A stretch of 64,000 nucleotides of DNA from contig CAZLWN010000001.1 in assembly GCA_964563195.1 (NCBI GenBank), positions 21,834 to 85,833 on the forward strand. The letters are read 5' to 3'. The notes under the pieces were generated by a model. The model saw only the letters and a program-made list of their open reading frames with translations, had not been told where the DNA came from and searched no databases. Origin of the DNA: an uncultured Undibacter sp. GTDB lineage: Bacteria > Pseudomonadota > Alphaproteobacteria > Rhizobiales > Xanthobacteraceae. Made by a program: the position numbers and the translations under genes. Positions 27,362 through 59,502 of the stretch are shown one piece after another; within the stretch, counting starts at the first letter, position 1, and each line of letters opens with the position of its first letter.

Positions 27362-27430
27362 GCGTATTTGGCCGGCGCCTGTGGTGATAATCAAATAGGC
27401 AAAGCTTCAGGACATTTTTTTGCTTCAATA

Positions 27431-39026: not shown

Positions 39027-39851
39027 TCACAAAGCCGTCCATCCGCCATCAAGCCGTAATTCAGCGCCGGTCATGTAAGAAGACGCATCAGATAGCAAAA
39101 AAACAACCGCCCCATCGTATTCATCTGCGTTTGCCATACGTCCTATTGGTATCCGACGCTGATAAGCATCGATGAAATCTTTGTCCTGATGATTAAAAAC
39201 GCCAGCGAGCGTGAGAATATTAACGCGCACGCGTGGCGCCCAGTATGTCGCGAGATAGCGCGTTAGATTATAAAGCGCCGATTTCGATGCCGAATATGCG
39301 ACTGGTTTAAAAAACTCTTCGCCCCGTTTCCTCCTATATTTATACAGACTCTGATCCGGCGAAACGACCCCGTAGATCGATCCGATATTGACGATCGACC
39401 CGCGTCCTGCCTCCGCCATGGCGCCGCCGAAAACCTGGCAACACAGCATGACCCCTTTGACGTTCACGTCCATCACTTTATTCCAGGACGATTCCGAAAA
39501 ATCTTCGAACCGGCCGTTCTCGGAAGCCGGCGCGTCGGGCGGGCTGTCGATGGCGGCGTTATTGATGAGTCCGTAAGGCGCGCCCCACTTTTTCTGTAAT
39601 TGATCGAGCGCACGTTCCAACTCATCGCGCTTCGTCACATCGGCGGAAAGAAACAGAGAATTGTCGAGATCAGCCGCAGGAAAGGACGGCTTCAACGCTG
39701 CGTCGCTGGCGCGATTGTCCAGAATCGCCACGCGGGCGCCGCGCGCAAGCAAAGCGTTCGCATAGCTGCGGCCAAGCTGGCCAAGTCCGCCAGTAATGAC
39801 AACCGGCCGGTCCGCGAGATTAAAAATGGGATCGGCGGACATGAGTATCAT
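39027..39851 (-). CDS. Short-chain dehydrogenase/reductase (classical SDR)
   Basis: [26 protein letters not shown] overlap with the neuB-like stop. Confidence 0.85.
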
Positions 39852-40939
39852 TTAATCTCGGTAGAGCCTTGTGCCTCGAGCTCGGGCGCCGGTGGCACCG
39901 CGTCCCAGCCGATCGTTTCATCCTCGGCCAGCGGCTTTTTCAGGGTACGTCCGATGACGCTGTCGAGGTAATAAGGCAACAGGCCATCGCCCGGCGACTT
40001 GATCGAAATGTCGGCCTTGGTCAGCGTGTGGCCGGCTGGAAGATTTCGCGCCGCCACCAGTTTCTTCGCCATCTTCTTGATTGGTGCGACCTCATCCGGC
40101 AGCGGCTTCTTTTTCCCATCTCCCAGCGCCTGATGCGCGCGATGCAGGTCGCGCACAAGCCGGCGCATTCCGTCCGGAGCGAGCGAAAGTGCGTGGTCCG
40201 TGCCTTTCCAGGCGCGGTTTAGGGTGAAATGCTTTTCTACGATCCGCGCGCCCAGTGCGTAGGCAATCAGCGGCATGGCGATGCCGTTATCGTGCGCCGA
40301 AAAGCCGACGACGACACCAGGAAACTCCTGGCGGAAGCTCTCGATAACGCGCAGATTCAAATTTTCGGCTTCGCAGGGATAGCTGGCCGTGCATTGCAAT
40401 ATTGCAAGTTCGCTGTTTATAGGCATGATCGCGTCGTAAGCACGGCGGACATCTGACATAGCCGCACCACCAGTGCTGATGATCATCGGCTTTCCGATCG
40501 CCGCAACGTGCTTGAGCAAGGGAATATTGGTCAAATCGCCTGATGCCAGTTTGTAGGCCGGCATGCCGAGTTCGGCAAGAAAATCAGCGCTGGGAATATC
40601 AAACGCGGTCGAGAAGAACGCGAGGCCAAGCTCCTTTGCGAGCTTTTTAAGTTCCACGTATTCGTCGCGGCCGAATTCAAGAAATTCGCGGTGCTCGCCA
40701 TAGGTTTGGCCAAACGCGTTTTCGCTATTATACGGCTGCGCATACATCGTTTTGGTGAATAGCGAGCGATTATCCCGCTTCTGCAACTTGACGGCGTTCG
40801 CACCGCACTCCTTAGCAACCTTGAATAGTTCGCGACATTTCGAGATCTCGCCTTGGTGATTATGCCCGATCTCGGCTATTACATAACACGGCCGGTCGTC
40901 GCTGATGCGTGTTCCATTGATCGAAAAACTTCGGTCCAC
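39848..40939 (-). CDS. neuB: NeuB-family nonulosonic (sialic-acid-like) acid synthase with C-terminal SAF domain, copy 2
   Basis: CYVIAEIGHNHQG, ANAVKLQKR, SAHDNG, and a SAF-like C-terminus (ISIKSPGDGL). Confidence 0.9.
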   Translation of the reverse strand: MDRSFSINGTRISDDRPCYVIAEIGHNHQGEISKCRELFKVAKECGANAVKLQKRDNRSLFTKTMYAQPYNSENAFGQTYGEHREFLEFGRDEYVELKKLAKELGLAFFSTAFDIPSADFLAELGMPAYKLASGDLTNIPLLKHVAAIGKPMIISTGGAAMSDVRRAYDAIMPINSELAILQCTASYPCEAENLNLRVIESFRQEFPGVVVGFSAHDNGIAMPLIAYALGARIVEKHFTLNRAWKGTDHALSLAPDGMRRLVRDLHRAHQALGDGKKKPLPDEVAPIKKMAKKLVAARNLPAGHTLTKADISIKSPGDGLLPYYLDSVIGRTLKKPLAEDETIGWDAVPPAPELEAQGSTEIK

Positions 40940-40979: not shown

Positions 40980-42758
40980 TTACGAAACAGCCGTTACAGA
41001 TTCGACATCAAGAACGCGAACTGTGCCAAAATCCACGCACAGGGTCAGATCGGCGTATTTTGCTAATTCCTGTTGATGAGAAATTGCCACGATTGTTAGC
41101 GTACTAGCCAATTTGCGAAGATTTCCGCAAATGGCTCGTTCCATTTCTGGGTCGAGCGCCGCCGTCGCTTCGTCCAAAATCAGCAGATCAGGCTTTTGAA
41201 TGAGAGCACGCGCAATCGCTATGCGCTGGCGTTGCCCGCCTGATATCGCCGCGCCGCGTTCGCCGACGGGAGTGTCCATACCCTGCGGGAGTGCCGAAAC
41301 GAATTCCCATATTCCCGCGCTTTCGAGCGCTTTTTGAACTTCGTCACGTCCGATTTTCTCGTCCATCAGCGTCAAATTCGAAAAAATCGTACCATTGAGG
41401 AGTTGGAGTTCCTGCGGAACATAGCCAATTCTCTTCCGCCAATTGCTAATGTTGTCCGAATTGATTGGCACACCGTCAACAGTGATCTTGCCAGACTGCG
41501 GCCACTGCAGCCCAATCATCATGTCGACCAATGTCGTCTTGCCTGCTCCCGATGGACCAACGATGACAATCATGCGACCGGCCGGTAGCGACAAATCCAA
41601 ATCGCGAAGGACGTCGCGGCCATTCTCGTAGGAAAAGGAAACTCCACTAAAGCGAATAGAGCGCTTTAAGCGGATCTCTTGGCCGGCGTACTTTTTTCCG
41701 CTCGCTTCTGCGACCGACCGCGCTAATGCGATTTCTGAGACCAAATGCAGATACGGCGCCTCGGCCGTCACCATATTTTGTAGATGATTTTGAAATACCA
41801 CAACGCGAGATACCAACCGATGAAATAGAACCAGCATAAAACCTATTTCGGCAAAGTTAAGCTTCAAATTCTTTAGCGCGAAATAGAGACCGAGGCAGAC
41901 GATCACGGCAACAAGCGGTTCCTGTACGACCGCATGCAAGCTCTTACTGAAGTTTTGTTTACGCTCGGCAATGGAGAGTTGGACGATTTCATCGTTGATG
42001 TAAGGCAAGATACGGTTTTGTAGCCCCATCGCCTTTAGCGGCTTCATTGAAATGACGCTATCGACCAGGCGCGACACCAGTGAGCGAGACAAAAGCACCA
42101 GCTCCCTTGTATGGCGGCGGGTTTTAGCAAGGGTTCCTCGAAGCAGTAGCATGATCAATCCACTCACGGCAAACGCGCCAAGAGTTAGCTGCCAAGATAC
42201 TCCGAATGCGAAGACAACATACGGAATTGCGGTCAATACGGCCGCGGTTAGATTCACAGTGCTGGAAAAGACACCGCTGGCGCGAATCGCGTCGTTGCTG
42301 ATTGCGTTGGCGATCGCTCCCGTGCGCTGACCGACCATGTAACTCCAGCGCGCGCCCATCAGACTTCGGATCAAATCCGTACGAAAATCAGCGGCAATTT
42401 GCGTCGTGCCGCGAACGATCAACTGTTGACCGATGACAGTTATTGCAGATTTTATAAAGATTCCGGCCATCACAAAGCCAAGCAAAACTTCGATTGGCGG
42501 CTGTCCGCCGATCACATGAAAGACTTTTTGTAGCTTTGCGGAAAAGCCGTGATCCACGCTTTCGGATCCAGTCGCCAGCATAAGAACTGGCAAGATAGCT
42601 GCAATTCCAAATATTTCGGCAATACCCGCCATCTGCATCGTCGCAACCGCGGCGGCGAAACGCCAACGATACCGGGCCGACAAGATATCTTTAACGAGCC
42701 ATATAGTTGAGCGGAAATCACCGCCCTTTGGGATGTCTTTCAAAATAAAAGACGTCAT
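40980..42758 (-). CDS. ABC exporter, fused transmembrane and ATP-binding domains (MsbA/PglK-like half transporter)
   Basis: Six-helix N-terminal half. GPSGAGKTT (Walker A), ISGGQRQRIAIARAL (signature), LLILDEATAALD (Walker B). Confidence 0.9.
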   Translation of the reverse strand: MTSFILKDIPKGGDFRSTIWLVKDILSARYRWRFAAAVATMQMAGIAEIFGIAAILPVLMLATGSESVDHGFSAKLQKVFHVIGGQPPIEVLLGFVMAGIFIKSAITVIGQQLIVRGTTQIAADFRTDLIRSLMGARWSYMVGQRTGAIANAISNDAIRASGVFSSTVNLTAAVLTAIPYVVFAFGVSWQLTLGAFAVSGLIMLLLRGTLAKTRRHTRELVLLSRSLVSRLVDSVISMKPLKAMGLQNRILPYINDEIVQLSIAERKQNFSKSLHAVVQEPLVAVIVCLGLYFALKNLKLNFAEIGFMLVLFHRLVSRVVVFQNHLQNMVTAEAPYLHLVSEIALARSVAEASGKKYAGQEIRLKRSIRFSGVSFSYENGRDVLRDLDLSLPAGRMIVIVGPSGAGKTTLVDMMIGLQWPQSGKITVDGVPINSDNISNWRKRIGYVPQELQLLNGTIFSNLTLMDEKIGRDEVQKALESAGIWEFVSALPQGMDTPVGERGAAISGGQRQRIAIARALIQKPDLLILDEATAALDPEMERAICGNLRKLASTLTIVAISHQQELAKYADLTLCVDFGTVRVLDVESVTAVS

Positions 42759-43910
42759 CAGTTGCGGCTTTCAGTCAATTTACGCAAAATCATTCGGAAC
42801 GATCCGCCTCGGAAGGCGAGCAATTCAGATAGCCGCCATTTGGCTTCTTCTGGCAGTCCGGCATAGGTGGCGCCCCAGCTATCCGGAACAAGCTGGGTAT
42901 ATTCCCGCCCCTGCCCCATCATTCGGTAGACCTCAAACCCGGCCGACCGCACAAGCGCGACCACTTCAGGCACTTCATACGCACGCTCACAAGGATGGCA
43001 GAAATGGTCGATCCATGGTGCGGTCGGAGTGTCGAAGCGCGCCGTAAATGCGGGTGACCAGACGATCCCTCGGGACCATCGCAGCAGATTGCGCAACCAA
43101 GTCTTCCCGCTCATAAAAATGTCGATCAACGGCATTTGCAATACCTGTCGCAACCAATGTTGTCGCCGATGATGCATGAGCGCATCGTAGAAAAAGAACC
43201 GGCGTTCAACATTGGTGAGGTCCGGTTCCAAAATATTGAGAATTTCCTTGATGTCGAATTTCTCACGATCAAGCCGCAAACCGTACAGATGGACTAGGAC
43301 GTGGACTCATAAACGGCGGGCCATATACTGCCTTTGACGCGCCACTCAATGTCCGCTTTTGGGTGCTAGCTCAACCGGTCGATGCAACGCAGGCGTTCGA
43401 AAGCGGACGTGCGGCCTGTTTTATGGGTACACGCCCTAGGAGATACCCGTCATCCCGCAACGCCGCGTGCAAAGTACGCAGCGCGACTACGGGCTCGGCC
43501 GCATGGTGTATCGTGCCAAGTGCGGCAATCACGTCGAATTGGCCCTCGAAAGGTAACGGTTTGAGATAGCTTCCTTTCCGCAGCGATACATTGGCCTTGT
43601 GTAACTTCGCCAAATCGGAAGCCACCTGGAGCGATGCTGCCGACAGGTCAATCCCGAAACAGTCCCAATTCGGGTATTTCTTCGCTACGCCGACGAGATA
43701 ATGACCGGTGCCACACCCTGCATCCAAGAAGCGTACGAGCTTGCGCTTCGCTAAATCCGCTGCAATCGGATCAGTAAAAAAGCTTATATCTTTCAGGCCT
43801 GCACCGAGACCTGGGTAAGGATCACGCTCATACATCGCGCGCACCGCCGACTCGTCACTCACGGCGGAAAGAGTGTCGCGGTCGATGTCGTTTTTCGAGT
43901 TGCTATACAT
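42758..43910 (-). pseudogene. Class I SAM methyltransferase apparently split by frameshift(s) into 43371-43910 and 42758-43279
   Basis: The N-terminal ORF has FLDAGCGTGHY and FDVIAALGTIHH and then stops. The next ORF is in another frame and carries the usual C-terminal part (IDHFCHPCERAYEVPEVVALVRSAGFEV). About 60 nt (43310-43370) is closed in both frames. Confidence 0.5.
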
Positions 43911-44145: not shown

Positions 44146-44166
44146 ACGAATTACGTCCCTATATTC

Positions 44167-44868
44167 TCATTTACGCTGCGCACGCAATTCACGAACCACC
44201 ACGAAGGCTTCTGCCATGCGGACTCCTACTGAGGCGCCACGCCATTTCGCTAAAGCCTCGACAGCTTCAATGGAGCGGACGTGCGGGAATGGCCTCATTT
44301 CCATAGGATAGGCCTCAAGTGCGGCCCTCTTTGCTATCCACTGCGCTTCGATGTCGACAAAGTGTGTCGGGTCGAAGACTGGCCCACTGCCAATGGTTCC
44401 ATACTCGGTGCTCGACGGCGTCTCGAACGCATATATTGCCTGCACGCCGCTGCCCGGCAAAGGTCTGCATGCCGTACACGTAGCCTGGTGCAAAACGCGA
44501 TGGTCGATATTAAGATCACGCGGATGGTGAACATAGACGATTTTCGGGTCGATGCGCTGCGCCACCCCTTCAATGATCTTTACGATATCGAGTAGCGGCA
44601 CACTGTCGAGTCGGTTGTCAGGCCACCCCGCGAGTACCAAATCGCTAACTCCTAGCGCCTTTGCTGCAATTTCTGCAGCGTTGTTCAGGTTGGCGAGATC
44701 ACTACCGCGAGCCGTGATGTTCCGTTTATCGTCGCGGGACGTTGCACCTTCTGCTACAATTAATATAGTGACCGTGGCACCGTCCTCGACGTGCCGTCTT
44801 ATTGTCCCGCCGCATCCCAAAACCTCGTCATCAGGGTGCGCGGCCACCACCAAAATGTGTTCAGACAT
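44167..44868 (-). CDS. PIG-L/LmbE family N-acetylsugar deacetylase
   Basis: ILVVAAHPDDEVLGCGGT, HPRDLNIDH. Confidence 0.85.
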   Translation of the reverse strand: MSEHILVVAAHPDDEVLGCGGTIRRHVEDGATVTILIVAEGATSRDDKRNITARGSDLANLNNAAEIAAKALGVSDLVLAGWPDNRLDSVPLLDIVKIIEGVAQRIDPKIVYVHHPRDLNIDHRVLHQATCTACRPLPGSGVQAIYAFETPSSTEYGTIGSGPVFDPTHFVDIEAQWIAKRAALEAYPMEMRPFPHVRSIEAVEALAKWRGASVGVRMAEAFVVVRELRAQRK

Positions 44869-44891
44869 CAGAGCTTTTCATTAACGTGAAA

Positions 44892-45572
44892 TCATCCGAT
44901 ATTCCAGTGCACATTTTCGAAACACCAATGTTGCTCCTTGAAACGCACCCGCCGCGGTACTACCGAATGGCTATCGAGAGAGACGCAAAATGCCAAGTCT
45001 GCGTCCTGGCCCAATTTTCGAAGACGTCTTGCACCATCGCATTCCAGTAGTTTTTTATGGATCGATGAAAAGTCTTGCGCTTTGCCAAGCCAAATGGCTT
45101 CAAGAAATTGAGCACACAGAATATCTTCTTCAGCCGGCCGCTCGCCGGCAAGCCCGGCAGCCCAAAAACCGACGTCGTTCGCTCCCATATTGCGCAAGGC
45201 ATTTGAGAGCGCGGCCGCATTGGCAAAACTTCCGATGATGACTGTTTGGTCCGGCCCACACGCAGCTATGCACCGGGTCCCGCCGGAGCTTGTGAGCACC
45301 ACACTGTTCCCGACTACGCTTTTCAGTCTGCCCGCGGGCGAGTTATCGCCGTCGCAGCCTGGAAGTTGCATGCCACCGCGTTCACCTAGCAGAATCCAGT
45401 CTTCATTACAGCGTTTTATTTCGCGCGCCTCGTCGATTGTTTCGACGGTAACGACACGGTAGGCATCTCGCGCAAGCAGCGAGATAATCGTGTTACTAGC
45501 ACGAAACACGTCGATAATCACGACCACTTTTGACAAACGCGGCGCTTCTGCCAACGTGCTGAAGACGGGCAT
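44892..45572 (-). CDS. comB: 2-phosphosulfolactate phosphatase family (ComB)
   Basis: VVIIDVFRASNTI, LLGERGG, GDNSP, VLTSSGGTR, GSFANAAA, AEEDILCAQFL. Together these are the motif set I associate with ComB/YitC. Confidence 0.8.
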   Translation of the reverse strand: MPVFSTLAEAPRLSKVVVIIDVFRASNTIISLLARDAYRVVTVETIDEAREIKRCNEDWILLGERGGMQLPGCDGDNSPAGRLKSVVGNSVVLTSSGGTRCIAACGPDQTVIIGSFANAAALSNALRNMGANDVGFWAAGLAGERPAEEDILCAQFLEAIWLGKAQDFSSIHKKLLECDGARRLRKLGQDADLAFCVSLDSHSVVPRRVRFKEQHWCFENVHWNIG

Positions 45573-45584
45573 ATCAAGTTTCGT

Positions 45585-46388
45585 TTAAGTACCGTGGAAA
45601 TGACGAACAGTATCGCCGCGTAGCCCAAGCCTCAATGTTTCCAAATTCAATACCTCTTCAAGCGGTATATTGCCGATATTGACGTTACTCCCAACCCGCT
45701 GAATGAACCAAGTCATCTGGGACTTATGAGGCGCTTCAAACACCAATTTTTCCATCGGGATCGCGTCAAGCACAGCCTCGACAATTGCATTTTGAAGCGA
45801 GCCATCTTTTCGATAAACGCCCGCCGTCGCGTCAGCGCGGCCCTCCAGAATAACTTTCCAAGCACCGGCTTCGAGGTCGGCCTTGCTGAATGCAGCCCAT
45901 TCCGATGGACTATTTTGATGAGCGATATCTTTGCTGCCTACTTCTGCAAAAACCGTGAACCCCCGACCAGCGAAAAACTCAATCATTTTTCGTTTGTCAG
46001 CCTCGGAGATATCGAGCGAGCCGTTTGATATCTCGACCAAATCGATATCGAGATCCGCTAACCACGCAGCATAATCATCAACTTTGTTTTGACTCCAACA
46101 TACTTCAAATAACGTCCCCCCAAGACAAACCTTAACTTCATAGTGACGAAATAGTTTGACCTTTTGCTGCAGTGTTGATGTCACGTACGCTGAACCCCAT
46201 CCCAGTTTTACGACATCGATAAATTGATGACAAAACGACAGGGTGTCGTCGAGAACAGAAAGCCCATACCCACTATCGAGAAGGCTCGACATCCCGACGT
46301 TGCGCGGCTTGATCGAGCGCATGGGAACATCAAGGTTTAGTTTCGGCTGACTTGAGTTTCTAGAATGTGCTGTATCAAACTTTATCAA
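45585..46388 (-). CDS. comA: (2R)-phospho-3-sulfolactate synthase family (ComA)
   Basis: LNLDVPMRSIKPRNVGMSSLLDSGYG and FIDVVKLGWGSAYV resemble ComA/YitD (L.LP.R..KPR..G; YIDFVKFGWGTS). A TTG start at 46388 keeps the conserved N-terminus. The first ATG is at 46322. Confidence 0.8.
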   Translation of the reverse strand: MIKFDTAHSRNSSQPKLNLDVPMRSIKPRNVGMSSLLDSGYGLSVLDDTLSFCHQFIDVVKLGWGSAYVTSTLQQKVKLFRHYEVKVCLGGTLFEVCWSQNKVDDYAAWLADLDIDLVEISNGSLDISEADKRKMIEFFAGRGFTVFAEVGSKDIAHQNSPSEWAAFSKADLEAGAWKVILEGRADATAGVYRKDGSLQNAIVEAVLDAIPMEKLVFEAPHKSQMTWFIQRVGSNVNIGNIPLEEVLNLETLRLGLRGDTVRHFHGT

Positions 46389-46436
46389 ATGTAGTTCCTC
46401 CGCCGCAACTGATGCTAATCCGTAAATATTTTAAAC

Positions 46437-46647: not shown

Positions 46648-48273
46648 CTAATAAGCCAAATAGGCTTCGAAGAACGCTGGATCGGAAAGCTTGGGCGCAG
46701 TCGTAAATGCTTCGGATAACGCACTCCAATCAACTTGCCGACGACCATTTTCATCCTTGTATCCTTCGACGATCGCGCAACGCAGCGAGAGAAGATCGAG
46801 TGCTACTCGGTCGAATGAATTAAGTTGAAAGCCTACGAATACAATTGGCCGATCGTGAAAAAGACCTTCGCCAAAGCTCGTACTCAGAGGATAATCATAT
46901 AGGAGAATATCTGCTTTTTCCCAAATCTTACCAAAAGGTTCATGCAAGACACAGTCATCTGCAAGCGATCGAAGCGCTTGTGGAATTCCGTAAACACACT
47001 CCGGATGTGGTTTGAGTAGCACTTCGAATCCCTTTGACCTAAGCCAAACGATGAGTCGAGCATACCAATCAAGTCTTACGTAGTCGCTTTCACCAGGATA
47101 AATGGCAACACCAGAGCCGCTAAAATAACTCGTTACGATCATCACCTTCTTACCGATAGGCGGTCCCTGCCTCGATTTAGCAGGCGGAAAAGAAAGCAAC
47201 CTAGCTCCAGGGGCCACTCCAATGCGTGGCCGATCAGGTCGCACGACAATATCGTCGCGATAAGTCCGCTCGATGCCTTTGACTTGCATGTCTGTAAACG
47301 TGAGAAATTGGTTGACCACCTCAAAATCATTGATGGCTTTCACGTTGGCCCTGAGAAAGCCGATTCCGGCCCCGTGATCATGACCGGTGATCTCGCCTTC
47401 TGCCGACCGGACTGCGTGCGCGAGAATTCGACTCCATATTTGACCGGATGAACCTATCCAGAGTCGGCGGGGTAATTTAATTGTTTTGCTTTCTAATTTA
47501 ATCAGATGCGCCTGCGCGGCTGCTGGAACAATCTCTGCCCAGCGGAATATCATCTTTTCTGAGGCAATATCGAAATTTGCACCGACCAAAGCGTAAGCTT
47601 GACGAGCGCTTTCAACGAGCCCGTTACGGATTGAAGCAAGCCCCATTGACGTCAATGGCGATAACCGTCCAAACCATCGAGAGGGGTGGCAATAAACGAC
47701 GGTGTCATCTATAGCGCTAGCATGCTTTTGTATAAGTTGGGAAATTGAGGTTACGGCGATCGCATTTTCCAAGTCAACAGATCGAAATTCGCCATCCCTA
47801 ATTATGCTACGCCTGAGCAAATTACGAATAAATCGAGCGGGCGCCTTCCAAGCCTGCCGCGGAGGAGGCCCCTGCAGTAGTCGCTTCGCAAACGCTTCTG
47901 GAGGTGCAAGATCTGATCGCATGAAGGCGGCCAGGAAATCCTGCTCTGGTAAAATAATTTCAACATGCGACGCATCACAACGCTTTACAAGTTGCGCTGC
48001 CCTGAAGCACCGTAGGACAAAAAGAGCAAAGTGGCCAGCGCAACATGCCACTGTGTCGCGATCAATACGGCGTTCCAATGTGCGCCCAAAGGCCGCGGTG
48101 CAGGGCAACAGAGCATTGCGAAATTCTTCAAGCTCTTCACGCGGGACCGGGTCAAAGAAATCCTTAAGCCCCTTTCCATCAATAACAAACTTATGCGGAT
48201 CGACAGCTAATCGATTTAGAGGCATATGCATAATAAATCCTTCTTTTAAATTTGATAGTGCGAACAACAACAA
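46648..48273 (-). CDS. Hypothetical 541-aa protein, possible GT-B/Capsule_synth-like transferase
   Basis: AT-richer ORF. FEVLLKPHPE...ADILLYDYPLSTSFGEGLFHDRPIVFVG has the same layout as the C-terminal half of the 23940-25448 protein. Confidence 0.45.
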   Translation of the reverse strand: MLLFALSNLKEGFIMHMPLNRLAVDPHKFVIDGKGLKDFFDPVPREELEEFRNALLPCTAAFGRTLERRIDRDTVACCAGHFALFVLRCFRAAQLVKRCDASHVEIILPEQDFLAAFMRSDLAPPEAFAKRLLQGPPPRQAWKAPARFIRNLLRRSIIRDGEFRSVDLENAIAVTSISQLIQKHASAIDDTVVYCHPSRWFGRLSPLTSMGLASIRNGLVESARQAYALVGANFDIASEKMIFRWAEIVPAAAQAHLIKLESKTIKLPRRLWIGSSGQIWSRILAHAVRSAEGEITGHDHGAGIGFLRANVKAINDFEVVNQFLTFTDMQVKGIERTYRDDIVVRPDRPRIGVAPGARLLSFPPAKSRQGPPIGKKVMIVTSYFSGSGVAIYPGESDYVRLDWYARLIVWLRSKGFEVLLKPHPECVYGIPQALRSLADDCVLHEPFGKIWEKADILLYDYPLSTSFGEGLFHDRPIVFVGFQLNSFDRVALDLLSLRCAIVEGYKDENGRRQVDWSALSEAFTTAPKLSDPAFFEAYLAY

Positions 48274-48677: not shown

Positions 48678-49436
48678 TCATGTCATTGAGCGGCGCGCAA
48701 GGGCCAAGATAGATCCACTTCGGCCCTTAACGCAATTCGGTAAAATACTCATAGTATCGGCACGAAACGGAATAAGCCAGCGCGACACAAAAAACGCATA
48801 AGGCAAGTCCCACATCCACGATGGTTTCTTAACAATCCATGGCACGACATAGGCGTCAACAAAATCATGAAATTCGAGCGTCTTTCTTAAGGATGTGGGA
48901 GTGTAGGGGTGAATATGGGTAGGATCGTCATAGAATTCGCGCGCGCTGTAAAACCAGTTAGGCGTAACGATAATTATCGCCCCGCCGGGTCGCAAGATAC
49001 GTTTTACCTCATGCAGCAGGTTTGTCGTAGACTGCATATGCTCAATAATTGACACAGCAGTAACAACATCGACGGACGAATCTTCAATGGGCAAACGATC
49101 TGTCTCAAAATCAAGCCCGTCTGACACGTCTAGGCCATAAGCAATTAACCCGCGAGCCTCACATATCCGAACCAGCGCACCGTCTGCCGAACCGAGATCC
49201 ACAACTTTTGTACCGGAAACGAACCCAGGCAACCCTCGGTGGCGCAACAACTGATCGAAAGTATCGAATACACGCTGCTTCAGCCTAATCTGTCGTTCGG
49301 GAAAACGCTCACGTTCGCGAATAATCCCACGCTGGTAGGCTTCCAATGATTTAAGTCTGCGCGACATTTGCATGAGTAACTGACGTTTTTCTATATTCTG
49401 ATTTCCATCTAATGCCGATCCAATTCGACGTCTCAA
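48678..49436 (-). CDS. Class I SAM-dependent methyltransferase
   Basis: VVDLGSADGALV, VDVVTAVSIIEHM, LRPGGAIIIVTPN. The track start is a TTG. An ATG alternative lies at 49373. Confidence 0.75.
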   Translation of the reverse strand: MRRRIGSALDGNQNIEKRQLLMQMSRRLKSLEAYQRGIIRERERFPERQIRLKQRVFDTFDQLLRHRGLPGFVSGTKVVDLGSADGALVRICEARGLIAYGLDVSDGLDFETDRLPIEDSSVDVVTAVSIIEHMQSTTNLLHEVKRILRPGGAIIIVTPNWFYSAREFYDDPTHIHPYTPTSLRKTLEFHDFVDAYVVPWIVKKPSWMWDLPYAFFVSRWLIPFRADTMSILPNCVKGRSGSILALARRSMT

Positions 49437-49519: not shown

Positions 49520-50551
49520 CTAACAGTTCTCTTTGGGCATAATTTCCGATAACTCAACGTCAAGCATTTCCCATACAACTGGCGTATTGGCGGAAACATT
49601 CTTCAGCAGCCGAAGTCCTATGACGCGATTAAGTTCCCTTGGGAGTAATCCATCTTCGGGCCGAATGACCTTAATGTCCTTTTCCGCTACGATCTCGCCA
49701 GCTTTCATCGCCCGCACAAAATGTAGGGAGCGGCGCATGTCGTGAATCTCCCGAGGATTCGGCTCAAAGTGCGCCGCGATTGATAATTCGGTCTTGCGGA
49801 TGGCGACGCACATCTCGGAAAATTCGCTCGGACGCAACGCCACAACATGATCGGGGCTTAAGCCATTTCCGGTGAGCGAAAAATGCTTCTCTATAATCTT
49901 TGCGCCAAGTGCAACTGCCGCGATCGGCGCTTCTATGCCGAGCGAATGGTCAGAAAATCCTACGGGACAATCTAGTCGGCCAGCTAGCATCGGAATATTT
50001 CCGAGACATAACGCTTCCGGCGGAGTCGGATAGCGACTAACGCAATGCAGTACCGCGAAGTTTCTAAATTCACGATCTGCAAGCGATTGCGTCAAATGCT
50101 TTACTTCATCAAATGTTGCAAGGCCGAGTGAAAATATTACCGGCTTGCCTATTTCTACGAGTCGTTCGATCATCGGCTCATGCGTAATGTTGGCCGATGC
50201 AACTTTGTACCCCCAAGCGCCGTACTCTTCCATCCAGCTCAAAGTGGTGAAATTGGTCGCAGTTGATAAAAAACGTACGCGTCGTTTAGCGCATCGCTTT
50301 ATAAGAACGGGATACCAGCGGCGCGGCATTTCAAATCGTTTTAGCATTGAGTAGTTGGAATCTTCCGTCGACACTAAATCGTCGGCAAGGAAGCTCTGGA
50401 ATTTGACAACGTCGGCCCCCGCCTCCGCCGCCGCATCGATGTGCGCCAGCGCGCGATTGAGATCGCCATCGTGATTGGAACCGACCTCAGCGATGATTGT
50501 CACTTTTGCGCGCTTGCTGTCGAATGCGCCAGGAGAGCCGACGTGCTGCAT
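49520..50551 (-). CDS. pseI: Pseudaminic acid synthase (NeuB family, copy 1)
   Basis: VTIIAEVGSNHDGD, ADVVKFQSF, FSDHS, SAF-like C-terminus. It lies in the pse operon. I used the ATG at 50551. Confidence 0.8.
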   Translation of the reverse strand: MQHVGSPGAFDSKRAKVTIIAEVGSNHDGDLNRALAHIDAAAEAGADVVKFQSFLADDLVSTEDSNYSMLKRFEMPRRWYPVLIKRCAKRRVRFLSTATNFTTLSWMEEYGAWGYKVASANITHEPMIERLVEIGKPVIFSLGLATFDEVKHLTQSLADREFRNFAVLHCVSRYPTPPEALCLGNIPMLAGRLDCPVGFSDHSLGIEAPIAAVALGAKIIEKHFSLTGNGLSPDHVVALRPSEFSEMCVAIRKTELSIAAHFEPNPREIHDMRRSLHFVRAMKAGEIVAEKDIKVIRPEDGLLPRELNRVIGLRLLKNVSANTPVVWEMLDVELSEIMPKENC

Positions 50552-50578
50552 TGATGCCAATTGAGAAATAGATCCCGC

Positions 50579-51637
50579 CTATGGGACTAGCACTCTTGCC
50601 TCGATTTCAGCATAGTCAACAACAACATCCTTACGGATTTTCAGGATGGCCTTTCCGTCGGGCGGATGAGAAATCGGATCCACTCGAATACCATGCACCA
50701 GATCTATGAGCAAATCCGTAAGATTAATCCCGGATGCCAAGATGTTCATGTCCTGCGCTGCGGTTCGCCCGCCATTCACTTCGATCAGGTAAGGGAGCCC
50801 ATCGCGTTGCGATGCAATCAATTCGACATTATTAAATCCAGGCATGAGACCGAGGGTCTCGACCGCGGTCACAGCCAATGCGATCATTGCATCGTTACGC
50901 TCAATTACAGCGGCGGTCGTCGTACTCTTGTTCCTACGTTTCTCGAATTTACGGCGGCTAACTGCGTAAACTAGCTGTCCGTCGCATGAATGCAGTGTGC
51001 TGACATTAAATTCATCCCCTTCAATCAGCTCTTGTACGAGAAACCGCATCGTGCCACCCGCCGAAAGACGCGCCACCCGTCGCAGAATGAAATCGTACTC
51101 GTCGCGATTTTCCGGCATGTAGACATGCCGACCGCCACGTGAAGCCAATACCTTAATAACAACGCGCCCTTCGAGTTCAGCCCACACTCGATCAGCGGCA
51201 AAGTCGTTGTCGAGAAACCAAGTGCGCGGCATGCGTATTCTGTTGCGTAAGCACTCGTCCATAAGCTGCTTGTCCAAGGCACGCTGCAACGCTTCCTCTG
51301 GCGGCAGCAGTATCCTACAACCAAGCGCCTCAATGACATCGCGATAATGGGCCAGTATGGGTAGCTCCTCATCAAGCCCCGAATAAAGTACGCCTATTCG
51401 TTCGCGCTCAATCAAACGCCGCAGTGCCGGGATATAGGATTTATCGTCGCAAGGCGGCAACTGATAGGCGGCATCCACTTCAGGCAAGAATAGATTTCCA
51501 GACGCCGGATTTGAATCCGCCAACAATGCACGGCAGCGATATTTACCCGAGCATTTCAGCGCCTGCAATTGCGCCAATATTCCAGGTCCACCACCGGGAG
51601 TAAGTAGCACTGTGACGTCAAATGAGCTGAGCTTCAT
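50579..51637 (-). CDS. ATP-grasp domain protein
   Basis: 352 aa. It has a pre-ATP-grasp region plus VIKVLASRGGRHVY, FLVQELIEGDEFNVS and YLIEVNGG-type motifs. Confidence 0.65.
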   Translation of the reverse strand: MKLSSFDVTVLLTPGGGPGILAQLQALKCSGKYRCRALLADSNPASGNLFLPEVDAAYQLPPCDDKSYIPALRRLIERERIGVLYSGLDEELPILAHYRDVIEALGCRILLPPEEALQRALDKQLMDECLRNRIRMPRTWFLDNDFAADRVWAELEGRVVIKVLASRGGRHVYMPENRDEYDFILRRVARLSAGGTMRFLVQELIEGDEFNVSTLHSCDGQLVYAVSRRKFEKRRNKSTTTAAVIERNDAMIALAVTAVETLGLMPGFNNVELIASQRDGLPYLIEVNGGRTAAQDMNILASGINLTDLLIDLVHGIRVDPISHPPDGKAILKIRKDVVVDYAEIEARVLVP

Positions 51638-51764: not shown

Positions 51765-53240
51765 TTATGCATGAGCGAGCCTCATCGGCTTGGATATATA
51801 GACATCCCCCGACCGCCTGTAACCGCAGCCCGAAAAGAGCCGCGCCGAGGCCTCATTCTCATCGAGCACATCGGCACGCAATTCAGCAGCTGGGCATAGA
51901 CGCCGCGCCAATCGTAAGGCGGCAGAGGCAACACCGCGTCGCTTCTGCTTCGGCGCCGTCAAAATCGAAATTTCGTAAGACGAATCACCGATCCGATCCA
52001 GTCGGAGCACGCCAGCCTCCCGGTCGTTCAACGTCACGACGTTAAAAATGCAGTTATTATCGGTCAATTTTGATTTCAACCAGCGGCAATGTTCATCATG
52101 TGATGGCGCCAATGGATTTCGAAAATAGCGGCGAGTGGACGGGTCACGTTGCCATTCAAACATCGTATCGGCGTCGTCCGTGGTGACCGGGCGCAAACGG
52201 ATTTCATCGACGCCGCGGATGACCTCTGGCGAGACACCGATAGCGACTCGCTGCGGCCCAAGACCATCACAAAGCGCCGCCGAACGCCCACTCATCTCCC
52301 AATATTTGATTGGATTTTCGGTAAGATTCTTTACGCCCTGCTCGAGCACTCTTTCATCAATCGCAATCCCGTCACCTATAATAATCGCGGCTCCGGCTTC
52401 GCGAAGAATAGCCGCATTCGGAAGTTGATTGGTAGCAGTTACTACGACGAGCGCTGGAATTCCGAGGCAGCAGCGCTCCCAGCTTGTCATCCCACCTGCA
52501 CCAAGCGCGATATCGGCAGCGGCCATGATCTCCGGGACATCGGATGCGTCGACATGAACCTCAACATCGAGCGCGCTTTCCGCCGCTCTATTACGTACAA
52601 AATGAAACCCTGACGCGTGCGTGCCGATCAGAATATCGATACGACATCCGCGCGGTAGGAGACGATTCAAAATTGGGAGGATTGCACCAGTTCGATCGCT
52701 CGCATCGATCATTCCAAAACTTACTACGATCCTTTCGCAGCCACGATTAGTCTTGCGGCGCGAAAGACTTTGATACCGCAGACGATGAAAGTCCGACCGA
52801 AGCAGCGCATATACCGGCCCCAAAAACTGGCGAGTTCCCGTAGCGAGACGATCGGGACCTCGGGTCGCTGCATCGAGTAGAAAATCGCAGTCATGCCTGC
52901 GACCGGTCGCGTCATCGATTACCAGAATCATCTTAGCCGAGCCTCGGCAAGCCCGCTCGAAATCTTCACCGCGCTCGTAGTGATCGACGACCATGAGGTC
53001 AGCAGCACCACCGGTAGCGGCCGCAATCTGCAAAGGTTCATCTTGAGCGGGTCCTTCCAAGACGATGACCTGCATTCTCGAATTCGCGAGTGCTGGAACA
53101 CTCTTGAGTGATGTCGCGCGGGTCACGAACGCACATTCCCAGCCAACGGCGTAAAGCGCATCGGCGAGCACCATCGAACGGATCACATGACCAGCGCCGA
53201 TTCGTGTCGAGGCATCACAGCGAAAAAGAGCCAAAGGCAT
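51765..53240 (-). CDS. pseG: Fused PseG (UDP-2,4-diacetamido-2,4,6-trideoxy-beta-L-altropyranose hydrolase) and PseH-like GNAT acetyltransferase
   Basis: N half: ALFRCDASTRIGAGHVIRSMVLADAL (PseG signature). C half: IRLRPVTTDDADTMFEWQRDPSTRRYF...RRGVASAAL (GNAT). The ATG at 53240 is the start. The track ORF's first 38 aa run into the IS remnant. Confidence 0.8.
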   Translation of the reverse strand: MPLALFRCDASTRIGAGHVIRSMVLADALYAVGWECAFVTRATSLKSVPALANSRMQVIVLEGPAQDEPLQIAAATGGAADLMVVDHYERGEDFERACRGSAKMILVIDDATGRRHDCDFLLDAATRGPDRLATGTRQFLGPVYALLRSDFHRLRYQSLSRRKTNRGCERIVVSFGMIDASDRTGAILPILNRLLPRGCRIDILIGTHASGFHFVRNRAAESALDVEVHVDASDVPEIMAAADIALGAGGMTSWERCCLGIPALVVVTATNQLPNAAILREAGAAIIIGDGIAIDERVLEQGVKNLTENPIKYWEMSGRSAALCDGLGPQRVAIGVSPEVIRGVDEIRLRPVTTDDADTMFEWQRDPSTRRYFRNPLAPSHDEHCRWLKSKLTDNNCIFNVVTLNDREAGVLRLDRIGDSSYEISILTAPKQKRRGVASAALRLARRLCPAAELRADVLDENEASARLFSGCGYRRSGDVYISKPMRLAHA

Positions 53241-53248
53241 TAGCAGTC

Positions 53249-54350
53249 TGCTGAAAAAGTTGGGAATTTCATCTTTGTCTCTACCGAGGGCCCGTGATTC
53301 TGGTGAAGTCTTCGATCGTTTGAGGCGTATTGTGTGGTCTGAACAGCCACTCACCTACGCCGCAACCAGTTTGGGAATACGGACTAGACTATAGGCGATC
53401 AGGTTGAGCATGAAGTCGGCGGCGACGCCGCAGATGGCGCAATGTTTGGTCTTGCACATCTCGCCGTGCCGCTTGCCCCAATCAAAGATGCATTTGATCG
53501 CCGCGCGGCGCGATTGCGACATTTCATAACCTTCGTGTCTCGCGGTGCGTTCATCGATGGCGCTGCGGCGGCTCGTGCCGATCTTGGTCGGGCCATTATT
53601 CTGCGTCACATGCGGTGTGATATTGCTGCCGCGAAGATTTGCCACATAATCGGCCGCGTCATAGGCCTTCTCCTCACCGGCCGTAATGCGGCGGCCGGCC
53701 TTCTTGGTCTTGGTTTTGAGCATCCACTCCGCGGCGCGGCGCTCGGCGGTGCAATTGGCGTGCGTGACCATGCCAGCCACCGCAAGCCCATGCCAGTTCT
53801 CCATGATGACGTGGCCCACATAGGATAGTTTAGCCTTCCGTCCGGCGGCCTTTTGGCGAAGCCCACTATCGGGATCGCTGGTCCTCGCATGCGTGTCGTT
53901 CTTGCGCTGCTGGCCATGAAAGTTTGTACCGTCATCGCCACCGCTGCCGTCCTTGAGGCGAAAGCTCTTCTGTGAAGCCCAGGCCTCGATCAGTGTTCCG
54001 TCCACCGAAAAATGAGCGTCCGGCAATAGCGGTTTGACCTGCGGATGGCTGCGAAGCCCAGCCATAAACTTCGTAAATACCTCGCTGTTCTGCAGCCGCT
54101 CTCGGTTCTTCGTAAAGCTGGTCGCGTGCCAGACCGGATCGTCGGGCGCAAGCCCCACGAACCAGCGGTATAAAAAATTGGAGTCACTCCCGTATCTTCC
54201 TCAGCGGATGGCCGCCGGAACCCGCGCCTCTGGCGAGATGTAAGAAAACATCGCGCCCTGGTCCTCAAATGCTCCCCGCATGCAAGCCTCTCGATTCGCG
54301 ATAAAAAACTGAATTATCAAATGATCGATGTGGTGATTGGTTTTTCAGCA
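53249..54350. mobile_element. Degenerate IS5-superfamily element (boundaries tentative)
   Basis: It encloses the transposase pseudogene. A perfect 10-bp inverted repeat, TGCTGAAAAA (53249-53258) and TTTTTCAGCA (54341-54350), may mark the ends. Confidence 0.35.
53355..54281 (-). pseudogene. IS5/IS1182-like DDE transposase, disrupted
   Basis: The 267-aa ORF has NFLYRWFVGLAPDDPVWHATSFTKNRERL and HFSVDGTLIEAWAS. Upstream, my own translation gives MRGAFEDQGAMFSYISPEARVPAA(H)PLRKIRE in another frame. The roughly 75 aa normally between these two blocks are missing. Confidence 0.8.
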
Positions 54351-54472: not shown

Positions 54473-55246
54473 TCAGTTCCGAGGCATTGCTAGACTCGCC
54501 GCGCGCGAACCGCGCCACAAGTATGCTGGAGGTTTCACGTAACGCTGGACGAGAACCTTCAAATCCGGACGGCCGTCCAGAAATTTCACAATCTCCTTGA
54601 GCGGAATCAATGGCGCCTTGTCGATCAACGTCCGATAGACCTCACGACATACCACCAGATCCTCGGGATAGTCCACGGTCAGACGCAAATCCGGTCGCCG
54701 CAAGCTGAATTCGGGTTCAAGCACCTCGATGAGAAATTCGTCGGCGTGCTGCTTTGCGTACCGTGAACACATCTCACGGCTCTCGTCGTTGCCATGGCGG
54801 TGGGATCGCACAAGCGCTTCCAATGTGTAAATTTCAAAAGCCGTACCAAGCGGCAGCGTTCCCGTCACAGTAATGTCATTGCCGTTCATCACATGACGAT
54901 ACCAAGCTTCGACGAGAGGTTCGTAATACAAGAACGGGCATTCGGTTGTTATTCGGAACACATCGCTACCCTGGCTGGCCCGAGCGCATTCGATCAAGCG
55001 AGACAGAACGTCTTGCTGATCGCCGACAATGAACGGAATTCCCCTGGCTTTGGCGATCTCGACAAAAATTTCATTCTCAACTCCCACGGAAATACCGAGA
55101 ACGCATTCACCAATCGCCGGCAATGCTTCCAAGGTTCGCAGGATCTGGTCAAGAATTGTCACGCCCGCTACGAGATTCTGCATTGGTTTGCCGAAAAGTC
55201 TGCTACCACCGTTGCGGCATGCTAACGCGGCGACGAGCCGTCTCAT
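54473..55246 (-). CDS. SpsF/FlmC-type cytidylyltransferase, candidate CMP-pseudaminic acid synthetase
   Basis: MRRLVAALACRNGGSRLFGKPMQNL (SpsF-like start) in the pse operon position of pseF. The ATG at 55246 is preceded by AAGGA. Confidence 0.65.
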   Translation of the reverse strand: MRRLVAALACRNGGSRLFGKPMQNLVAGVTILDQILRTLEALPAIGECVLGISVGVENEIFVEIAKARGIPFIVGDQQDVLSRLIECARASQGSDVFRITTECPFLYYEPLVEAWYRHVMNGNDITVTGTLPLGTAFEIYTLEALVRSHRHGNDESREMCSRYAKQHADEFLIEVLEPEFSLRRPDLRLTVDYPEDLVVCREVYRTLIDKAPLIPLKEIVKFLDGRPDLKVLVQRYVKPPAYLWRGSRAASLAMPRN

Positions 55247-55448
55247 TCCAGGTCCTTTCCCATCAACAGCGCGCCGACTGGTAGTACCCGCTTTAATTTT
55301 TGCCCGACCATCTTGGGCCGTGTAACTAGCGACCGTAAAGGCTTCAACCAATTGCGTAGCTTCTCAATTTCATTGCTATGAATATAACCGATTTACTATT
55401 CTGTGGACCAAGGTAACCGAACAATCGGTCAACATCGAAAACTTTAGA

Positions 55449-57756: not shown

Positions 57757-57768
57757 CATGCTACCGCA
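57757..57768 (-). promoter_or_regulatory. ops-like element TGCGGTAGCATG (compare E. coli ops GGCGGTAGnnTG)
   Basis: Read on the coding (minus) strand. It lies in the 82-nt gap between the NusG-paralog stop and pseB. Confidence 0.4.
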
Positions 57769-59294: not shown

Positions 59295-59502
59295 TCCACA
59301 TCACCCGTCGTGATGACGCATCCGGCGCCTTCAGTCCCCACGCGGGAGCCACGCTTGGTCGCAGTCCCTCGATCAGTCGCAGAATCTCCTCGAACAATTC
59401 CTTCGGTGCCTCGCGTTTGACCTCCGCGCAAGCCGGAAAAGCGCTAATATTTTCCCCGTTTGGGAATAATCTGTGGAATCCCGGCCAAAAGGAATTTGCC
59501 CT

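Follow-up and report, generated by a model that had tools for sequence, protein, structure and literature searches.

Background

The enzymes ComA and ComB catalyze the first two steps of coenzyme M (CoM) synthesis in archaea, in which phosphoenolpyruvate (PEP) and sulfite are joined by ComA into phosphosulfolactate, which is then converted by ComB to sulfolactate. In Bacillus, sulfolactate accumulates free in the spores. Here we describe a ComA/ComB gene pair, adjoined by a gene of the PIG-L deacetylase family, in a 64-kb stretch of DNA from an uncultured Undibacter sp. (GenBank assembly GCA_964563195.1, contig CAZLWN010000001.1, positions 21,834 to 85,833; 64,000 nucleotides, hereafter the window), and compare it with loci from other genomes and metagenomes, which are referred to by L numbers where they have to be told apart. 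Judging from its gene content, the pair lies inside a genuine operon for pseudaminic acid (Pse), not merely near sugar genes, and its recurrence in such operons points to an undescribed sulfonated surface sugar.

One group of closely related described systems concerns the ComA and ComB families themselves. The M. jannaschii ComA and ComB, which carry out steps 1 and 2 of archaeal CoM synthesis, belong to the same two families as the window proteins, the invariant charged residues of ComA are kept, and the same chemistry is expected; unlike the archaeal route, however, the scanned window ORFs yielded no ComC or ComDE, the pair is encoded in a Pse operon, and its product would serve as an acyl donor rather than a cofactor precursor. 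B. subtilis YitD/YitC is a bacterial ComA/ComB pair with sulfolactate as its end product, and YitD is the best solved-structure match of the window ComA; on the other hand, the window pair has no sporulation context and is tied to ligase, deacetylase and sugar-pathway genes. The bacterial CoM route of Xanthobacter (XcbB-XcbE) begins with the ComA homologue XcbB, followed by XcbC, XcbD and XcbE (PMC9457059). The window has ComB in place of XcbC and lacks XcbD and XcbE, and an XcbC-like lyase is paired with ComA in two of the loci described below, L086 and L054.

A second group of described systems concerns the acyl groups of surface sugars and related acceptors. N-glyceroyl is one of the many N-acyl groups found on Pse, and its genetic basis was stated to be unknown (PMC5378307). 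N-glyceroyl Pse, which occurs as Pse5Am7Gra in Tannerella forsythia and in the 2,3-di-O-methylglyceroyl form in Campylobacter jejuni, likewise bears a C3 2-hydroxy-acyl amide; the sulfolactoyl group proposed here would be the 3-sulfo analogue of glyceroyl, with a permanently anionic sulfonate in place of the 3-hydroxyl, and the window locus contains methyltransferases, as in C. jejuni. In misaugamycin-B, a ComA homologue is predicted to supply a 2-sulfoacetyl N-acyl group, and sulfite boosts the production (PMC9136965). Its cassette, which consists of an acyl carrier protein, an acyl-CoA ligase, the ComA homologue and a glyoxalase, resembles L086 rather than the window in its mode of activation; furthermore, its acceptor is a glycopeptide N-terminus and its acyl group is C2, as opposed to the C3 acyl group of the proposed module. 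The one known form of sulfonated surface glycan is the type B flagellin glycan of Clostridium difficile, which is peptidylamido and taurine-capped (PMC5207245); here too an amino sugar of a surface glycan bears a sulfonate-containing substituent in amide linkage, but the taurine ends a dipeptide on Fuc3N, and there is no ComA/ComB, nonulosonic acid or ATP-grasp/PIG-L module. Finally, in the legionaminic acid cluster of Ca. Kuenenia stuttgartiensis, an inserted deacetylase and a formyltransferase have been proposed to exchange the N-acyl group (bioRxiv 10.64898/2026.04.20.719630), which is the same logic of deacetylation followed by reacylation within a nonulosonic acid operon, except that the new acyl group is formyl and is added by a formyltransferase.

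In the literature searched, from which most subscription journals fell outside the scope, we came across no account of a nonulosonic acid bearing a sulfolactoyl, cysteoyl or sulfopropanoyl group, or of a Pse cluster containing ComA/ComB. The first-pass annotation of this stretch, made from its letters alone, had been aware of no sulfolactyl-decorated bacterial polysaccharide, and our searches agree with it, as no sulfolactoyl glycan or polysaccharide was found there either.

Results and discussion

The ComA, ComB and PIG-L genes

The three genes at the centre of this study are as follows.

45585..46388 (-): predicted ComA-family phosphosulfolactate synthase (PF02679, 272.2 bits; likely coding sequence 45585-46322)
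44892..45572 (-): predicted ComB-family 2-phosphosulfolactate phosphatase (PF04029, 143.4 bits; 70 bits to the solved structure 1VR0)
44167..44868 (-): predicted PIG-L/LmbE-family de-N-acetylase (PF02585, 92.4 bits; AHPDDE motif)

Their scores in the Pfam profile search are far above chance level: the gathering score is 25.2 for PF02679 (E=5e-81, with model positions 3-243 of 243 covered), 26.4 for PF04029 (E=7.5e-42) and 28.2 for PF02585. The genes are co-directional, with spacers of 12 nt between the ComA stop and the ComB start and of 23 nt between the ComB stop and the PIG-L start, as tightly packed as the first-pass annotation had described them, and the motifs that it had read are present in the translations, i.e. 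KPRNVG and FIDVVKLGWGSAYV in 45585-46388(-), and IIDVFRASNTI, LLGERGG, GDNSP, LTSSGGTR and EEDILCAQFL in 44892-45572(-). Since gene callers place the ComA start of identical public contigs at the internal Met23 (245 aa), the coding sequence is probably 45585-46322 rather than 45585-46388.

Among solved structures, the window ComA matches B. subtilis YitD (1U83; 40% identity) with 192 bits and M. jannaschii ComA (1QWG; 39% identity) with 152 bits. In an alignment of 37 relatives, 13 charged residues of ComA are invariant (K61, E95, E119, E149, K153, E182, R184, E218, K222, E250, R253, R257 and D259), and all of them align to identical residues in both 1U83 and 1QWG. The joining of sulfite and PEP by the ComAs of this clade is predicted from the function of the family. 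The window ComB retains the motifs DxxRA, GER and NSP, and is 45-53% identical to the ComBs of related Pse operons. In the PIG-L protein, the metal-site motif AHPDDE is found in the translation as VVAAHPDDEVLGCGGT, and the nearest solved relatives are 2-acetamido-sugar deacetylases, namely diacetylchitobiose deacetylase and BshB1.

The surrounding pseudaminic acid operon

According to Pfam and NCBIfam scans, the window is devoted to glycan biosynthesis throughout, and a single operon on the minus strand spans 59003 down to about 40980. It begins with a helix-turn-helix (HTH) regulator, an RfaH-like NusG paralog, PseB, PseC, a divergent cytidylyltransferase, an IS5 transposase remnant and a PseG-GNAT fusion, and continues with an ATP-grasp protein, a PseI-type NeuB, a methyltransferase, a 541-aa protein, ComA, ComB, PIG-L, a methyltransferase region and an ABC exporter of the MsbA/PglK type. 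The genes that make up the sugar pathway, together with the ATP-grasp gene, are listed here.

56654..57751 (-): PseB, UDP-GlcNAc 4,6-dehydratase (inverting) (NCBIfam TIGR03589, 495.5 bits, cut-off 407.75)
55449..56672 (-): PseC aminotransferase (NCBIfam TIGR03588, 469.7 bits, cut-off 423.5)
54473..55351 (-): divergent cytidylyltransferase in the PseF position (Pfam CTP_transf_3, 26.6 bits, gathering score 22.6)
51765..53354 (-): PseG (UDP-sugar hydrolase) fused to a GNAT, PseH-like N-acetyltransferase (TIGR03590, 191.8 bits, cut-off 153.55)
50579..51637 (-): ATP-grasp ligase, proposed sulfolactate:amino-sugar ligase (Pfam ATP-grasp_3, 48 bits; PylC-like_N, 36 bits; ATPgrasp_Ter)
49520..50560 (-): PseI-type nonulosonic acid synthase of the NeuB family (Pfam NeuB, 221.5 bits, plus SAF)

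Because PseB, PseC and PseG exceed their NCBIfam equivalog cut-offs, the operon is identified as a genuine Pse operon. The roles of PseH, PseI and PseF seem to be taken by divergent members of their families, as could be expected if the substrates were modified. The PseG-GNAT fusion, which matches Glyco_tran_28_C and Acetyltransf_3 in Pfam, scores 41 bits on the PseH model TIGR03585, under its cut-off of 93; the synthase scores 241.6 bits on the PseI model (cut-off 340) and 263.5 bits on the NeuB model, both below the equivalog cut-offs, and is 53-59% identical to the module NeuBs of related loci; and the cytidylyltransferase has no match to the PseF equivalog in NCBIfam, while CTP_transf_3 genes hold the same operon position in L002, L003 and L085.

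Recurrence of the module in other lineages

The first-pass annotation had suggested looking for the same synteny in other genomes. Five ComAs related to that of the window (53-66% identity), all on long contigs, were looked up, and each of them was found in a Pse operon with ATP-grasp and PIG-L genes. The layout in these relatives starts with PseB, PseC, PseF, PseG (with PseH or a formyltransferase) and ComA, continues with an optional carbamoyltransferase, radical-SAM or formyltransferase gene, and ends with ATP-grasp, ComB, NeuB, PIG-L and a large unassigned protein; the usual order of the module itself is ComA, ATP-grasp, ComB, PseI, PIG-L. An independent metagenome scan, seeded by the ATP-grasp protein, returned 22 loci. 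Wherever the ATP-grasp was at least 50% identical and at least 2.7 kb of upstream flank was present, ComA was found upstream, usually directly adjacent, and most of these loci have ComB directly downstream, with NeuB and PIG-L next. The PIG-L gene is kept in every related locus with sufficient downstream flank.

In a neighbor-joining tree of 104 ComAs, all the ComAs from Pse operons with an ATP-grasp gene fall into one clade, the window ComA included. This clade comprises 14 lineages at <95% identity, with pairwise identities of 51-84%, while the window ComA is just 39-50% identical to the ComAs outside it. The clade is rare among 185,579 species-representative genomes: a close-relative scan of them with the window ComA found nothing, and a profile scan returned 80 loci, of which only L005/L006, in the same clade, and L054 are Pse-linked; the clade has two members only in this collection, one in a Proteobacteria metagenome-assembled genome (MAG) and the other in a Rhodospirillales MAG. 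On this comparative evidence, what is conserved within Pse operons is the set of ComA, ATP-grasp, (ComB), PseI and PIG-L, and this pattern recurs across the 14 lineages. This synteny supports the earlier suggestion that sulfolactate may here be the final product of the pair and serve to build the glycan.

It might be argued instead that the pair makes free sulfolactate, for CoM synthesis, storage or osmoprotection, and that its position in a glycan locus is accidental; CoM and free sulfolactate are indeed the only experimentally established roles of ComA/ComB (PMC9457059). However, no ComC (Ldh_2), ComDE-type or Xcb-type gene (XcbC, XcbD or XcbE) was found in any of the window ORFs covered by the Pfam and NCBIfam scans, in line with the earlier remark that no sulfolactate dehydrogenase or sulfopyruvate decarboxylase is visible there, and none of ComC, ComDE, XcbC, XcbD and XcbE was found in the flanking 10 kb of the related loci linked to Pse. 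A sporulation context is absent as well, and an accidental position would have to account for the association with Pse, ATP-grasp and PIG-L genes in 14 lineages whose ComAs form one clade. On the genes of the window and of the related loci, we regard this reading as extremely improbable, and CoM biosynthesis in particular was rejected, as its downstream genes were not found among the scanned window ORFs and the Pse context is conserved.

Links to sulfite and sulfonate chemistry

Four independent lines of evidence from gene content and sequence favour sulfonate chemistry in these operons: the conserved ComA residues described above, a CysH gene in L110, a gene swap in L102 and L107, and the flagellin islands of L086 and L054.

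CysH yields sulfite as its product. In L110 (JGI Ga0056135_10000002), the gene at 2124-2849 encodes a CysH equivalog (phosphoadenylyl-sulfate reductase, NF002537; 244.6 bits, cut-off 154), which directly follows the NusG paralog at the head of an operon with Pse, ComA and ATP-grasp genes, and would supply sulfite to that operon. The same operon has no ComB, and a DUF4915 protein is encoded immediately upstream of its ComA.

The Pse operons of L102 (7090-10376) and L107 (2-3529+) have ATP-grasp, NeuB and PIG-L genes, and lack both ComA and ComB. Their ATP-grasps are 35% identical to that of the window and 55% to each other, and beside them lies a gene for a cysteate-synthase-like pyridoxal phosphate enzyme, which scores 191 bits on TIGR03844 (cut-off 325) and only 45 bits on ThrC; L102 also encodes a serine-O-acetyltransferase-like hexapeptide protein. 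Cysteate (2-amino-3-sulfopropanoate) corresponds to sulfolactate with an amino group in place of the 2-hydroxyl. Two makers of a C3 sulfonate that are not homologous to each other would thus hold the same slot beside homologous ligases, and the slot for acid supply would seem to hold an exchangeable cassette.

A different arrangement is seen in two flagellin glycosylation islands of the Alteromonadales, in L086 (Pseudoalteromonas sp. GB56, JBPCHK010000001.1:1291526-1312275) and L054 (an uncultured Thalassotalea, CANLNK010000002.1), whose ComAs are 44-50% identical to the window ComA (50% for L086). Between flagellin genes, these islands encode PseB, PseC, PseF, NeuB, a DUF2172/DUF4910 protein and Maf proteins, together with a lyase for which XcbC is the best model (418 bits, as against 256 for ArgH), an SdhA/FrdA-like (fumarate-reductase-like) flavoprotein with a ferredoxin, an acyl-AMP ligase, a carrier protein and an Antibiotic_NAT N-acyltransferase; neither of them contains ComB, ATP-grasp or PIG-L. 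XcbC is the phosphosulfolactate phosphate-lyase of bacterial CoM synthesis. The gene content of the islands suggests a second route, in which phosphosulfolactate would be converted via sulfoacrylate to a sulfopropanoyl group, giving a sulfonated Pse on flagellin.

Outside Pse operons, the ComA of L111, an actinobacterial locus, is followed by CysH, CysC, CysD, CysN, TauE and a Wzy_C-PIG-L fusion, and these flanking genes tie the family to sulfite. As a separate observation, in L111 and in most of the loci L007-L084 (Thermoleophilia/Gaiellaceae and other Actinomycetota; Saprospiraceae in L007 and L051) a ComA of about 45% identity adjoins an FAD-binding Frd/NadB-like protein, and these pairs also adjoin class-I fumarase-like alpha and beta subunits (Actinomycetota, L111/L007-L084) or a Lyase_1 protein (Saprospiraceae). 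By its gene content, this triad of ComA, lyase or hydratase, and flavoprotein is a widespread and uncharacterised arrangement linked to sulfate activation.

The ATP-grasp ligase and a proposed mechanism

The first-pass annotation had named both the ATP-grasp and the AsnB-like enzymes of the locus as possible ligases. Of these, the ATP-grasp is likely to be the ligase, since it is the conserved partner of ComA and the AsnB-like genes are not; the latter were rejected on this ground, and only the ATP-grasp half of the suggestion stands. The nearest named relative of the window ATP-grasp is from a Kiloniellales MAG (73% identity), and the AlphaFold model of the window protein (pLDDT 95) matches 2PN1 in Foldseek with E=2e-21, followed by biotin carboxylases and L-amino-acid ligases. 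The ligation of sulfolactate to an amino sugar by this enzyme is proposed from its gene neighbourhood.

We infer that ComA, ComB and PIG-L belong to a module that attaches a C3 sulfonate to Pse, the first two supplying the acid and the third preparing the acceptor. As the function of their families would have it, ComA would join sulfite and PEP to give 2-phospho-3-sulfolactate, and ComB would dephosphorylate the latter to 3-sulfolactate. PIG-L would strip an N-acetyl group from Pse or from its 2,4-diacetamido-altrose precursor, the likeliest target being the acetyl inherited from UDP-GlcNAc, on the future N5 of Pse. The ATP-grasp would then form the acyl-phosphate of the sulfolactate carboxylate and link it as an amide to the freed amine, giving N-(3-sulfolactoyl)-Pse, which would be activated with cytidine monophosphate (CMP), transferred to the glycan, possibly by the GT-B-like 541-aa protein, and exported with it through the ABC exporter. 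More speculatively, a window methyltransferase, or the carbamoyltransferase of L002 and L003, could further modify the 2-hydroxyl. The predicted mass of Pse(Ac)(sulfolactoyl), C14H24N2O12S, is 444.105 Da, with [M-H]- of 748.139 for the CMP form, and the predicted shift relative to acetyl is +109.967 Da; the corresponding cysteoyl and 3-sulfopropanoyl sugars would have masses of 443.121 and 428.110 Da.

The acetyl on N5 is favoured for three reasons: the nearest solved relatives of PIG-L act on 2-acetamido sugars; every locus keeps a PseH-type GNAT or a formyltransferase for the amine derived from PseC; and an acetyl inherited through the biosynthesis can be exchanged only after deacetylation. 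We infer the chemical steps, the acceptor position and the order of the steps from sequence comparisons, and the Pse operon context lends support to the earlier idea of a sulfolactyl group on a nonulosonic acid amine freed by the deacetylase.

The attachment might also be the reverse of this, with sulfolactate joined via its 2-hydroxyl and the ATP-grasp activating another carboxylate, e.g. C1 of Pse or that of another acid, so that an ester would result, or an amide in the case of cysteate. The acids predicted to be made beside the homologous ATP-grasps differ only at C2, where sulfolactate has OH and cysteate has NH2, as would fit a nucleophile at C2; ATP-grasps that form depsipeptide esters are established (VanA, and D-Ala-D-Lac as against D-Ala-D-Ala ligases); and the fold search fits any carboxylate ligase. 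On the other hand, such an attachment leaves the invariably co-occurring PIG-L without a role, and a blocked carboxylate would be unusual for a Pse that needs CMP activation and transfer. Attachment through C2 is therefore in our judgement unlikely, and the sulfolactoyl amide at N5 is retained as the preferred structure.

Other genes of the operon

The remaining features of the operon are listed from its head to its end.

58356..59003 (-): winged-helix (HTH_24) regulator at the operon head (Pfam HTH_24, 34.9 bits)
57834..58349 (-): RfaH-like NusG paralog, operon antiterminator (Pfam NusG, 78 bits)
57757..57768 (-): ops-like element TGCGGTAGCATG in the pseB leader, one mismatch to GGCGGTAGNNTG
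53355..54158 (-): IS5-family transposase remnant between the PseF-like gene and PseG/H (NCBIfam NF033581, 140.8 bits, cut-off 140)
48678..49436 (-): class I S-adenosylmethionine (SAM) methyltransferase (Pfam Methyltransf_23, Methyltransf_11)
46648..48273 (-): 541-aa candidate glycosyltransferase with a GT-B-like fold (AlphaFold pLDDT 80, pTM 0.83)
42758..43910 (-): methyltransferase-domain ORF (43371-43910; Methyltransf_31, _12, _25) and 173-aa ORF (42758-43279)
40980..42758 (-): ABC exporter with fused transmembrane and nucleotide-binding domains, MsbA/PglK/HepA type (Pfam ABC_membrane, ABC_tran)

A pair of HTH regulator and NusG paralog also precedes the Pse operon in L002, L003 and L110. 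The RfaH-like protein scores 129.3 bits on the NCBIfam RfaH model TIGR01955, under its cut-off of 144.5, and 75.6 bits on UpxY. The ops-like element sits exactly between the RfaH-like gene and the start of pseB, and is one of six sites in the window with a single mismatch; with two mismatches allowed, the count of the motif in the window is not above chance, and the element is only suggestive of an RfaH-type site. In 42500-49700, predicted promoters and terminators were no more numerous than in shuffled sequence, and an Rfam search of the window returned no family. The IS5 remnant matches model positions 70-284 of 285, with its N-terminus gone, and has the orientation of the operon.

The 541-aa protein has no Pfam or NCBIfam match, and the top Foldseek matches of its model are the GT-B enzymes UrdGT2, LanGT2, TarL, MurG and NeuC (E of 1e-5 to 1e-3, with TM scores of only 0.3-0.5); its homologues come after NeuB in L102, L097 and L099. 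The idea that it might be the LIC12162-family protein found after PIG-L in the relatives was rejected, since no similarity was seen on comparison. The 4-kb segment at 46001-50000, which spans its gene, the methyltransferase gene and part of NeuB, has a G+C content of 0.48, compared with 0.52-0.62 elsewhere in the window, a dip that is compatible with a mosaic acquisition of the module. The methyltransferase at 48678..49436 has homologues of 35-36% identity in L085 and L100.

In the region downstream of PIG-L, the ORF at 43371-43910 encodes 179 aa and is separated by 91 nt from the 173-aa ORF, for which no family match was obtained; no fused methyltransferase homologous to the whole of 42758-43910 was found among the fetched loci, and a three-frame read is ambiguous. 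The ABC exporter has HepA_fam_ABC as its best NCBIfam match (272 bits, below the cut-off of that model), with homologues of 30-36% identity in L001 and L085. As for the neighbours that the first-pass annotation had named, the PIG-L deacetylase, the exporter, the ATP-grasp and AsnB-like genes and the NeuB-type synthase, of which there are two (49520-50560 and 39848-40939), are all present, while its single methyltransferase next to PIG-L turned out to be two ORFs.

Other glycan genes in the window

The window encodes a number of further glycan-related proteins outside the operon.

59473..60414 (+): ORF with a weak sulfotransferase domain match (PF00685, 23.2 bits; no NCBIfam match)
39848..40939 (-): second NeuB-family synthase, in a group with an SDR and a DegT aminotransferase (37904-40939)
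28372..29109 (-): PseF-like cytidylyltransferase (123 bits, below cut-off)
27431..28375 (-): DHDPS/NanA-like aldolase
25445..27394 (-): transketolase-like thiamine pyrophosphate enzyme
23940..25541 (-): Capsule_synth (KpsS/KpsC-like) protein
22492-23388, 20695-21654 and 11847-12710 (-): three FkbM-family methyltransferase genes of the distal glycan locus
17845-19815, 15997-17838 and 6861-8780 (-): three AsnB-like amidotransferase genes of the distal glycan locus

The genes at 23940-29109 and 37904-40939 may enable the locus to make a second, unusual ulosonic acid, and the ORF at 59473-60414, which is divergent from the operon, might encode an enzyme using 3'-phosphoadenosine 5'-phosphosulfate beside a sulfonate-making operon. 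None of the distal AsnB-like and FkbM genes is conserved with ComA in the related loci.

With such a large glycan locus, containing many transferases, three AsnB-like genes and a second set of ulosonic-acid-like genes, sulfolactate or phosphosulfolactate might decorate a glycan residue other than Pse, e.g. as an ester or a phosphodiester, with the ATP-grasp ligating something else to Pse; a phosphorylated donor would also be possible for those lineages that have no ComB. However, ComA and ComB lie immediately beside the ATP-grasp and PseI genes in most lineages, amid the core genes for Pse, the remainder of the glycan locus varies between lineages, and the cysteate-synthase-like swap fills the very same slot, so that decoration of another residue is improbable and Pse remains the favoured acceptor.

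Assessment of the proposed function

Several observations weigh against the proposed mechanism. The window ComA scores 230.1 bits on TIGR03849, the equivalog of the archaeal CoM enzyme, under the cut-off of 280, and by this measure is a member of the family but not an archaeal-type equivalog; the best NCBIfam equivalog score of ComB is 108 bits, with a cut-off of 235. These cut-offs derive from archaeal and other clades. The profile searches that the first-pass annotation had called for thus place both proteins in their Pfam families and below the NCBIfam equivalog cut-offs. Furthermore, all the Pse-linked ComBs (window, L002, L003 and L085) have T(S/T)SGGT where the solved 1VR0 and 2YYV have TTTNGT, which by alignment is a clade-specific Asn-to-Gly change, and 3 of the 14 lineages have no ComB within 10 kb (L001/L103; L089/L110/L094), so the phosphatase step would be dispensable there or done by another enzyme. 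The fold search with the ATP-grasp is generic and uninformative on its substrate, and the module order is rearranged in the window, where the ATP-grasp lies 4.2 kb from ComA. In addition, no sulfite-supply gene was found in the window; the IS5 remnant lies within the operon, where it may affect the expression of the downstream module, such that the expression of the window copy is not guaranteed; and 42758-43910 may be one truncated, split or disrupted methyltransferase gene.

From the scores below the equivalog cut-offs, the altered ComB motif and an identity of only about 40% to the characterised ComAs, one could argue that, in this clade, the ComA- and ComB-like proteins have taken up another reaction by drift, perhaps with a different nucleophile or phospho-acid, and that the acyl group is not a sulfonate. 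Yet the charged residues invariant in the ComA family are all kept, a CysH equivalog is linked to the operon in L110, a cysteate-synthase-like gene takes the same slot elsewhere, L086 pairs a phosphosulfolactate-specific XcbC-like enzyme with a ComA that is 50% identical to that of the window, and CysH, CysC, CysD, CysN and TauE flank an actinobacterial ComA. Such a drift is, in our opinion, very unlikely.

Taken with these points, the decoration of Pse by a sulfonate derived from ComA is quite probable, and we lean, with less assurance, towards the sulfolactoyl amide at N5 as its specific form. A broader proposal can be made only tentatively, with a slightly less than even chance of being right: that there exists a class of Pse N-acylated with C3 sulfonates (sulfolactoyl, cysteoyl, and sulfopropanoyl or sulfoacryloyl), made by three convergent cassettes drawn from the three known enzyme sets for CoM precursors and displayed on glycans and flagellins, mainly in marine Proteobacteria. 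The cassettes would be ComA/ComB; the cysteate-synthase-like enzyme; and ComA with the XcbC-like lyase and the fumarate-reductase-like flavoprotein. The first two would be coupled to ATP-grasp and PIG-L, and the third to the acyl-AMP ligase and carrier protein, while the sites of display would be capsule or lipopolysaccharide-type glycans on the one hand and flagellins on the other.

Conclusions

The SugarBase pipeline for nucleotide sugars drops every candidate composition in which N and S occur together (bioRxiv 10.64898/2026.04.20.719630), and would thus miss sulfonated nonulosonic acids. With at least one current pipeline discarding such compositions, sulfonated Pse may have been overlooked for technical reasons.

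If the proposed function is true, the supply of a glycan building block would be a third biological role for ComA/ComB, after CoM and spore sulfolactate. Pse is a sugar that shapes flagellar assembly, phage recognition and immune evasion, and a permanently charged sulfonate would join its known N-acyl repertoire. Furthermore, ATP-grasp and PIG-L would be candidate enzymes for the long-unassigned swap of N-acyl groups on nonulosonic acids, including the analogous N-glyceroyl. The proposed sugar would thereby extend the nonulosonic acids diversified through their N-acyl groups, by the use of known sulfonate-forming enzymes.

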